This document shows, one piece after another, positions 44,184 through 45,082 of a stretch of 64,000 nucleotides of DNA (positions are counted from its first letter, which is position 1; each line of letters starts with the position of its first letter). Origin of the DNA: Eledone cirrhosa (lineage: Eukaryota). Below the pieces are notes generated by a model. It did not search any database and had not been told where the DNA came from. It saw nothing but the letters and a program-made list of their open reading frames with translations. A program made the translations under genes and the position numbers. The stretch is from NCBI GenBank assembly GCA_964016885.1, contig OZ024743.1, positions 78,864,001 to 78,928,000 of the forward strand, in the 5' to 3' direction.

Positions 44184-45075
44184 AAATGAGCGGAACAAGC
44201 AATTATCAAACAATCTTTTAAATAAATTAAAAAACGATTTAAATATTCACCTGTTCTATTGCCGTTACCGACAGTTTCACTAATCAAAAGATTGGAAATT
44301 CAGAGAATTTCCAATGGAAAGAATTAGATCTTCAGACAGCTATTTCCATACTATAGGGTATAAAGCCTCATAGTAAGTTAATATTTCGCTTCATTCGCGG
44401 TGCATGCGGTCAAGCCGTTAAAGTGACTTACACACAAAAATAGGCCATGAGTAAAAGCGGGTTATTATAAACTTGTTGATCATGCCGCTAAAAATAGCAG
44501 CGCAATACACCGTTTTGTTCTCTACATATAGGAGAAAAATTATAAAAGGGTATAGATATTCCTACAGGCACTAGGTACCTCCAGAAATATGCATGGTGTT
44601 TATAATACCCTTTTATAATTTTTCTCCTATATGTAGAGAACAAAACGTTGTATCGCGCTGCTATTTTTAGCGGCATGATCAACAAGTTTATAATAACCCG
44701 CTTTTACTCATGGCCTATTTTTGTGTGTAAGTCACTTTAACGGCTTGACCGCATGCAACGCGAATGAAGCGAAATATTAACTTACTATGAGGCTTTATAC
44801 CCTTATAGGATGGACATAGCTGTCTGAAGATCAAATTCTTTCCATTGGAAATTCTCTGAATTTCCAATCTTTTGATTAGTCAAACCGTCGGTAACGGCAA
44901 TAGAACAGGTGAATATTTAAATCGTTTTTTAATTTATTTAAAAGATTGTTTGATGATTACTTGTTCCGCTCATTTTTATAGTTCTGGTATCTCAAATTAG
45001 TACCATCGAACCACAACTATTATAAACACCATGCATATTTCTGTAGGTACTCAGTGCCTGTCGGAATATCCATAC

Positions 45076-45082
<7 letters not shown>
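44184..45082. mobile_element. Inverted, circularly permuted non-coding element in (TA)n with two hammerheads
   Basis: About 44184-44552 is inverted at about 44605-44973, and about 44543-44606 is inverted at about 45018-45082. Confidence 0.85.
44261..44340 (-). ncRNA. Type I hammerhead (mirror 44819-44898 has GAAA>CAAA)
   Basis: gctgt-CTGAAGA-t-ctaatt..gattag-t-GAAA-ctgtcgg-TA-acggc. Confidence 0.85.

Follow-up and report, generated by a model that had tools for sequence, protein, structure and literature searches.

The 64,000-nt stretch of Eledone cirrhosa DNA analysed here (the window) is microsatellite-rich repeat DNA, and at 44184-45082 it holds a head-to-head element with (TA)n adjoining the 3′ ends of both arms. 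We defined the unit of this element as 44605-45071 (467 nt) and aligned both arms to the doubled unit. The right arm (44605-45082, plus strand) consists of one full unit plus ~11 nt, which agrees with the original prediction of a complete plus-strand unit starting at 44605; the first ~10–13 nt of this arm recur at 45072 with one mismatch. The left arm (44185-44607, minus strand) had been expected to open the same unit at a different point, and the alignment confirms this: it starts at unit position 414, runs to 467 and continues from 1 to ~372/376, so that it is ~43 nt shorter than one unit; it matches the doubled unit in 413 of 430 columns. The arms meet at an inversion junction (44605-44607) where 3 nt of microhomology are common to both. 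While the inverted parts at 44179-44553 and 44605-44980 are 95–98% complementary, the 51-nt spacer between them is not unique, and its sequence recurs in the right extension (44541-44607 matches 45018-45084 in reverse complement over 67 nt, 91%, E 1.6e-20). The apparent spacer is the permuted segment, unit positions 414–467 (44554-44607, minus strand), and forms part of hairpin 2; the right extension is a one-sided 3′ tail of ~106 nt (44976-45082, plus strand) that contains its own copy of hairpin 2 (~45029-45075). The offsets between the arms are unequal, with 54 nt at the 5′ ends versus ~106 nt at the 3′ ends. In total, the arms differ by 15 substitutions (seven transitions and eight transversions) and one indel.

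The (TA)n target tracts lie at 44169-44184 on the left and 45081-45133 on the right, and no target-site duplication could be resolved at the element within them. Each tract also bounds the 3′ end of a neighbour. On the left, another type I hammerhead element (44030-44168, plus strand; core at 44040, cleavage after 44121) ends 47 nt past its cleavage site in the tract that bounds the left arm, and C-rich short repeats are located upstream of its hammerhead (43810-44010). On the right, 45134-46056 (minus strand) contains 1.6 tandem copies of a 542-nt unit with two hammerheads (cores 45368 and 45910), a retrozyme-like partial dimer that ends in the right tract. After this 542-nt repeat comes an inverted stub of 49 nt, and near 46050-46070 there is another small palindromic junction.

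The unit of the head-to-head element is noncoding, with a G+C content of 35% and a longest ATG frame of 58 amino acids on the circular unit; among the ATG frames of the circular unit, neither an RT nor a GIY-YIG endonuclease frame was found. On the minus strand, 44261-44340 forms a type I hammerhead whose stem I has 5 bp, whose stem II is long, and whose helix III is palindromic with 3 bp; the outer pair is 44340/44261, the core is at 44335, and the GUA cleavage triplet is cut after 44266. The mirror copy on the plus strand (44819-44898) is damaged: the change of G12 to C that had been reported for it lies at 44881, and the stem II pair at 44833 is broken as well. Compared with the conserved type I core (CUGANGA, GAAA, and NUH) plus stems I to III, the left copy fits and the right copy fails at G12. 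The left copy had been described as intact, which holds for its core and does not hold for helix III, whose 3 bp have a pair probability near 0 in the monomer. As a two-copy duplex, helix III reaches computed energies of −8.9 (left) and −13.3 (right) kcal/mol. This palindromic helix III would fit the dimeric design published for metazoan hammerheads (PMC4209133).

A relaxed hammerhead scan found nine motifs in the 64-kb window versus one in total across 20 shuffled windows. Rfam gave no match in the window at the gathering score, and with E up to 10 the region 44000-45200 gave 30 subthreshold matches, none of which was to a hammerhead family. These matches, mostly microRNA or small-RNA models placed on hairpin or TA tracts, were rejected as shape matches. 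A tRNA-derived SINE was likewise rejected as an identity, as ARAGORN reported 0 genes and the Rfam scans no tRNA family, a result that decayed heads could escape. RNAalifold recovered neither the hammerhead nor the hairpin from a four-row alignment, and the hammerhead structure was therefore set by hand.

Directly 3′ of the cleavage site lies hairpin 1, present at 44193-44256 on the minus strand (z −3.0) and at 44903-44966 on the plus strand (z −3.2). The left arm ends at a short site 81 nt past the cleavage site, ~8–10 nt beyond the base of hairpin 1, and the right arm ends at a long site 187 nt past it, ahead of which lies hairpin 2 (z −3.9 for the segment 44554-44607). Both 3′ end sites are found ~10 nt beyond a conserved hairpin. 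Folded as a circle, the unit reaches −119.5 kcal/mol versus −85.8 ± 4.7 kcal/mol in 60 shuffles and adopts a branched structure with 64% of its positions paired. The idea that differences between the arms preserve structure was dropped, since of nine differences at paired positions only three retain pairing.

The permutation had been proposed to be checked in other copies, which was carried out on one distant relative in the window (3158-3670, plus strand). This relative consists of a ~478-nt unit and an exact 35-nt terminal direct repeat, carries one hammerhead, and shows a third permutation, opening the unit near position 345, with the same short 3′ end: it ends in TA at the short site of the left arm. 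It scored 388 against the focal family, whereas the maximum in 500 dinucleotide shuffles was 302; it is the top tile of the 414 in the window, and 238 of 481 columns are identical. In stem I and basal stem II, 6 of 10 pairs are changed on both sides between the two, a count that compares two independent lineages on a structure hand-drawn on the focal copy. A 5′-truncated sister of this relative at 53366-53465 (plus strand) has the same 3′ end. The long post-cleavage hairpin is present in the relative (z −2.4), its sister (z −1.7), and the 49921-51084 element described below (z −4.2), whereas the other four regions folded have a weak or absent hairpin there (z 0.2 to −2.0). Similarly, hairpin 2 precedes the long site in the focal arms, the 3158 element, and the 49921 element (z −2.1 to −4.7). 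A multiple alignment of eight hammerhead-to-end regions gave no common primary motif, a search of the focal family against a prokaryotic genome collection gave 0 matches, and a two-hammerhead source locus of the family was not found within the 64-kb window.

A parallel in geometry is the head-to-head element at 49921-51084, which has a unit of 591 nt and arms of 581 and 585 nt. Both of its arms carry a hammerhead with a palindromic helix III and a U3-A8 core variant of the kind reported from Cercyon PLEs (PMC4209133). The original prediction called the two elements unrelated in sequence and suggested a shared mechanism. The first part stands at the level of primary sequence (z −0.6). In RNA structure, however, the two share a module in which a long hairpin comes after a type I hammerhead. 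In a covariance model of the focal family, the left arm of 49921-51084 was the best nontraining match (25 bits, rough E 0.004), followed by an arm of a coding locus (23.9 bits, rough E 0.006) and a TA-rich chance match (22.4 bits); the model has four training sequences, and the margin over the chance match is thin. The second part is supported by the head-to-head arrangement, (TA)n ends, 2–3 nt of junction microhomology, and staggered 3′ ends that the two elements share, and the shared mechanism is very likely Penelope-like retrotransposition. The arms of 49921-51084 are identical at 156/156 and 418/419 positions, and since they differ at 1 of 575 aligned positions, the insertion is young. Its 5′ ends are offset by ~161 nt and its 3′ ends by ~167 nt; this parallel disfavors a single fixed transcript start and makes 49921-51084 the clearest case on the question of a circular template.

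Many PLE-type hammerhead insertions lie in the window, the focal element among them. Two broken coding loci of Hydra type, at 30553-34067 and 19979-23811, have the same organization of inverted hammerhead arms (head-to-head in the former) and a one-sided tail, and their arms end in TA. Broken frames were identified at 8048-8665, 21835-22479, and 31888-33170. The frames at 8048 and 31888 carry CxCX5C, and the latter additionally carries CxxC and CxH; these three motifs are published marks of Hydra-clade PLEs, nearly all of which are reported to insert in (TA)n. By eye, the 21835 frame closely matches Hydra-1_Obim of Octopus bimaculoides in a published alignment, and in the Atlas a homologue of the window frames is placed among clusters that carry HTH_animal, GIY-YIG, and RVT_1 domains. 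Pfam recognized neither the PLE frames of the window nor three homologues, and a PDB sequence search with the frames returned nothing useful, so that the PLE assignment is based on the motifs, the Atlas neighborhood of the homologue, and the by-eye comparison with published Hydra proteins. The focal unit has no primary-sequence match to the two coding loci (z below 0), and in comparisons with seven candidates (coding arms, 49921, the 542-nt repeat, 44040, and 3158), six gave z below 1. The coding loci would therefore illustrate the kind of enzyme donor only, as they have no primary homology to the focal unit. Their unit lengths are unmeasurable because their tails do not recur in their bodies.

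All five head-to-head pairs measured within the window that have a hammerhead on both arms have staggered 3′ ends, whose distances to the cleavage site are 150/57, 34/111, 55/145, 81/187 (focal), and 77/245 nt, and two of the five flank Hydra-type RT/endonuclease frames. One further observation concerns 1231-1663, a short head-to-head hammerhead pair with a short-loop junction that is related to the ends of 30553-34067; the two loci belong to the same hammerhead family and have 3′ sites at 150/57 and 55/145 nt, respectively. Two more Hydra-type hammerhead motifs on the minus strand (3946-3990 and 5974-6020) were seen in the strict scan only.

A palindrome of 792 nt at 27618-28409 is perfect (100%), includes a repeat of ~190 nt, and has TA along just one flank; no hammerhead was found in it, and it is either an inversion that happened very recently or an artefact of assembly. 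A ~195-nt SINE-like family, which we take to resemble octopus SINE-like repeats, is present in many copies (28925-29310, 35321-35790, 36208-36332, 37416-38082, 42905-43050, 51867-52279, and 16462-16570), several of them arranged in tandem or tail to tail around (TAA)n. Short inverted repeats, some MITE-like, occur by or around TA tracts at 3081-3158, 34187-34311, 35836-35984, 59878-59947, and 27325-27425. Judged by eye from translations, other transposon frames lie at 13617-16184, 38884-41982, and 60458-62739 on the plus strand and 24089-26896 on the minus strand; they comprise an L1/Tx1-like RT with an uninterrupted 855-amino-acid stretch, two broken RTE-like LINEs, and Helitron-like helicase fragments.

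Head-to-head insertions are familiar from L1 twin priming, in which the inversion is joined by microhomology and 3′ ends lie at both flanks. However, L1 inversions split one linear RNA into nonoverlapping parts, whereas the two focal arms, beginning at different points, span nearly the same full unit. As described in Craig 2021 (PMC8557442), the Hydra-clade PLEs share with the focal element insertion in (TA)n, a canonical type I hammerhead near the 3′ end, a palindromic helix III, a 5′-truncated inverted copy at the 5′ end, and a tail at one end only. Moreover, the focal hammerhead fits the Hydra design when compared by eye with File S2 of that work, in which 26 rows are of Hydra type; the traits in common are a palindromic 4+1+4 helix III, GUA/GUU cleavage, and a U before GAA. 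In contrast, the focal unit is 467 nt long, has no RT/endonuclease frame, and carries a tail of ~106 nt versus 30–40 nt, and it has no primary-sequence match to the Hydra-clade coding copies in the window. For PLEs, 5′-truncated copies in inverted orientation and tails on one side are the norm (PMC3846280 and PMC8557442), and the insertion geometry of the focal element is already in print for PLEs and ordinary for this genome.

A second likeness is to metazoan non-LTR retrozymes. In PMC7229834 and 10.64898/2026.07.22.740005 these are described as noncoding units of ~150–450 (up to ~970) nt that are poor in G+C and carry a type I hammerhead, and they are proposed to be nonautonomous PLE derivatives with a circular RNA intermediate. 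These descriptions present retrozymes as head-to-tail tandems or solo monomers, whereas the focal copies are head-to-head and permuted. A run of two or more units in succession, each with a full hammerhead, is not present at the focal locus, where the two hammerheads lie on opposite strands and one is broken. The focal element works like a retrozyme yet at this locus falls outside the two-tandem-hammerhead definition of an active retrozyme, and it is not an autonomous PLE. Taken together, the focal element is very likely a nonautonomous, retrozyme-like passenger of Hydra-clade PLEs. Its noncoding hammerhead family is apparently undescribed, while the supplements of 10.64898/2026.07.22.740005 may list related families. 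A search of titles and abstract openings, whose coverage left most subscription papers and the 2005–2006 PLE reviews outside, returned no permuted one-unit arms in head-to-head retrozyme insertions.

Two other PLE systems are informative. Dual opposite-strand minimal hammerheads 100–700 bp apart are reported for Schistosoma PLEs, and the focal cleavage sites are 627 bp apart; the accessible part of that report treats the Schistosoma hammerheads as truncated PLEs, leaves unit length and permutation unanalysed, and proposes a circular template for more-than-unit copying (PMC4209133). The purified Anolis PLE protein PAc, from Poseidon, nicks and extends both strands of an AT-rich target. It initiates reverse transcription at two internal sites, and this accounts for the one-sided tail (Frangieh 2024, PMC11167929). 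Its first start site lies 85–92 nt past the hammerhead cut, compared with 81 nt in the focal element. However, Poseidon PAc is autonomous and of a different clade, and its start is reported there as nonhomologous to the target, whereas TA microhomology is seen here. In the same study, hammerhead cleavage was unnecessary in vitro and no reads ended at the cleavage site.

We consider the best explanation as a whole, with a probability of roughly 0.6, to be a permuted head-to-head PLE passenger formed from two target-primed cDNAs, possibly on a circular RNA template. Within this explanation, insertion by two primed cDNAs is probable, and a circular template for the focal arms is a serious candidate that falls slightly short of even odds. 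A tandem-unit source locus would be transcribed, and the palindromic helix III would pair two hammerheads as a dimer, releasing unit-length RNA that would then be ligated to a circle. A PLE RT/GIY-YIG protein may nick both strands of (TA)n, as suggested by Frangieh 2024 together with the flanks. The RT would start at the two internal sites (81 and 187 nt past cleavage), helped by 2–4 nt of pairing with the TA primer; each RT would stop near its own start after one turn, and the two cDNA 3′ ends would be annealed at the 3-nt microhomology in the center. In-register TA of at least 2 nt (2–5 nt) in the read-through was observed at 6 of 10 3′ junctions against a background of 0.16–0.21, hinting at primer–template pairing; the focal left junction, with in-register microhomology of 1 nt only, is outside these six. 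Each focal arm approximates one unit in length and reads through the cleavage site without a break; therefore, the template was either a ligated circle or an uncleaved multimer. The focal copy itself is unable to make a circle because it has one sense hammerhead per strand, and since its read-through transcript is predicted to fold as a ~370-bp hairpin (−630 kcal/mol) if transcribed, it is likely a dead-end copy.

The choice between circle and line is addressed by the arm lengths. Relative to one unit, the arms measure +11 and −43 nt (focal), −6 and −10 nt (49921), +35 nt (3158), and +332 nt (542-nt repeat), so that five of six are within 10% of one unit; P is 2e-4 under a uniform null of 0.5–2 units or 9e-3 under one of 0.8–1.5 units, in a post hoc test biased by what makes permutation visible. 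The count excluded 53366, 1231-1663, 44040, the 46008 stub, and the coding loci, which have no measurable unit or are interrupted. These one-unit lengths favor a circular RNA template without proving it. Points against a circle are the 1.6-unit neighbor, the unequal focal offsets, and the dispensability of hammerhead cleavage in vitro (PMC11167929). In addition, divergence between the focal arms is higher in the permuted segment (5/54) than in the in-register part (11/372; Fisher p 0.04), which counts against a circle because fold-back copying or gene conversion predicts it.

Such fold-back copying is the basis of the first alternative, which we regard as unlikely. It retains a PLE passenger and derives the arms from one cDNA on a linear, uncleaved, partial-tandem transcript, folded back via the 3-nt microhomology with a 51-nt loop, while the tail comes from another, short cDNA begun at the long site. 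Self-priming has been proposed for head-to-head PLE junctions by Arkhipova 2013 (PMC3846280), and the divergence of the permuted segment fits this route, as do a single-hammerhead linear template of 532 nt that contains both arms, the position of the left arm 5′ end at the base of hairpin 2, and the short-loop junction of 1231-1663. However, the 49921 element lacks excess divergence, the focal join is displaced by 13 nt from the natural pairing register of hairpin 2, the coding locus 30553-34067 would require a loop of ~1.66 kb, and the point of fold-back would have to lie, by coincidence, within 6–11 nt of the long start site in two unrelated elements.

Less probable again is that two primed cDNAs were copied from a long linear multimer, such as tandem-array read-through, with random 5′ truncation, the one-unit lengths arising by chance and ascertainment. 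The 542-nt neighbor of 1.6 units and the many window arms that are short truncations are in line with this, and unprocessed multimeric RNA is described as a favored substrate in PMC11167929. What weighs against it is that, of the five measurable arms near one unit, four lie within 35 nt and three within 11 nt of it. The remaining explanations concern the nature of the element itself. An endogenized viroid-like or satellite circular RNA, replicating from RNA to RNA and captured once by a PLE RT, would account for a small, noncoding, strongly folded unit with a hammerhead, but we consider it very improbable: the ribozyme motif is present in one polarity only, the fold is branched rather than rod-like with 35% G+C, the hammerhead is of PLE design, and the diverged relative ends at the same 3′ site. 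A MITE or foldback DNA transposon that duplicated a TA target is scarcely credible, and so is host DNA duplicated locally in inverted orientation, despite the long inverted repeats flanked by TA, as the inverted repeat is not terminal and stops ~106 nt before the right end, the right extension recurs, permuted, in the spacer, the hammerhead covaries, and the terminal repeats of the 3158 relative are direct, not inverted. Finally, although a perfect palindrome does occur elsewhere in the window (27618-28409), the chance of an assembly or chimeric-read artefact here is close to negligible, because the 15 substitutions and one indel between the arms are not those of a fold-back read, and the arms are permuted in a geometry found at four other loci.

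Returning to the two-cDNA reading, we tentatively suggest a more specific form of it, in which permuted head-to-head insertions are footprints of a dimeric Penelope RT copying hammerhead-made RNA circles, one turn per subunit, with each subunit priming from one nicked (TA)n strand at one of two hairpin-marked starts. A role of the hammerhead and circular RNA in transposition was proposed in 2014 (PMC4209133) and 2020 (PMC7229834) and described as unclear in 2021 (PMC8557442). The focal element ties a retrozyme-like unit to the insertion signatures of PLEs, namely an inverted arm, a one-sided tail, and a TA target, and provides direct structural support for retrozymes as PLE passengers in an invertebrate. 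Its short noncoding unit lets the RT reach its natural stop, and the way arm lengths and start sites are distributed among copies can therefore separate a circular from a linear template, which makes a test of the circular intermediate possible from genome sequence alone. If the dimer reading is true, arm lengths would serve as a genome-wide ruler for the circular intermediate, and the hammerhead would gain a role in the mobilization of PLEs and retrozymes that in vitro work has not found.
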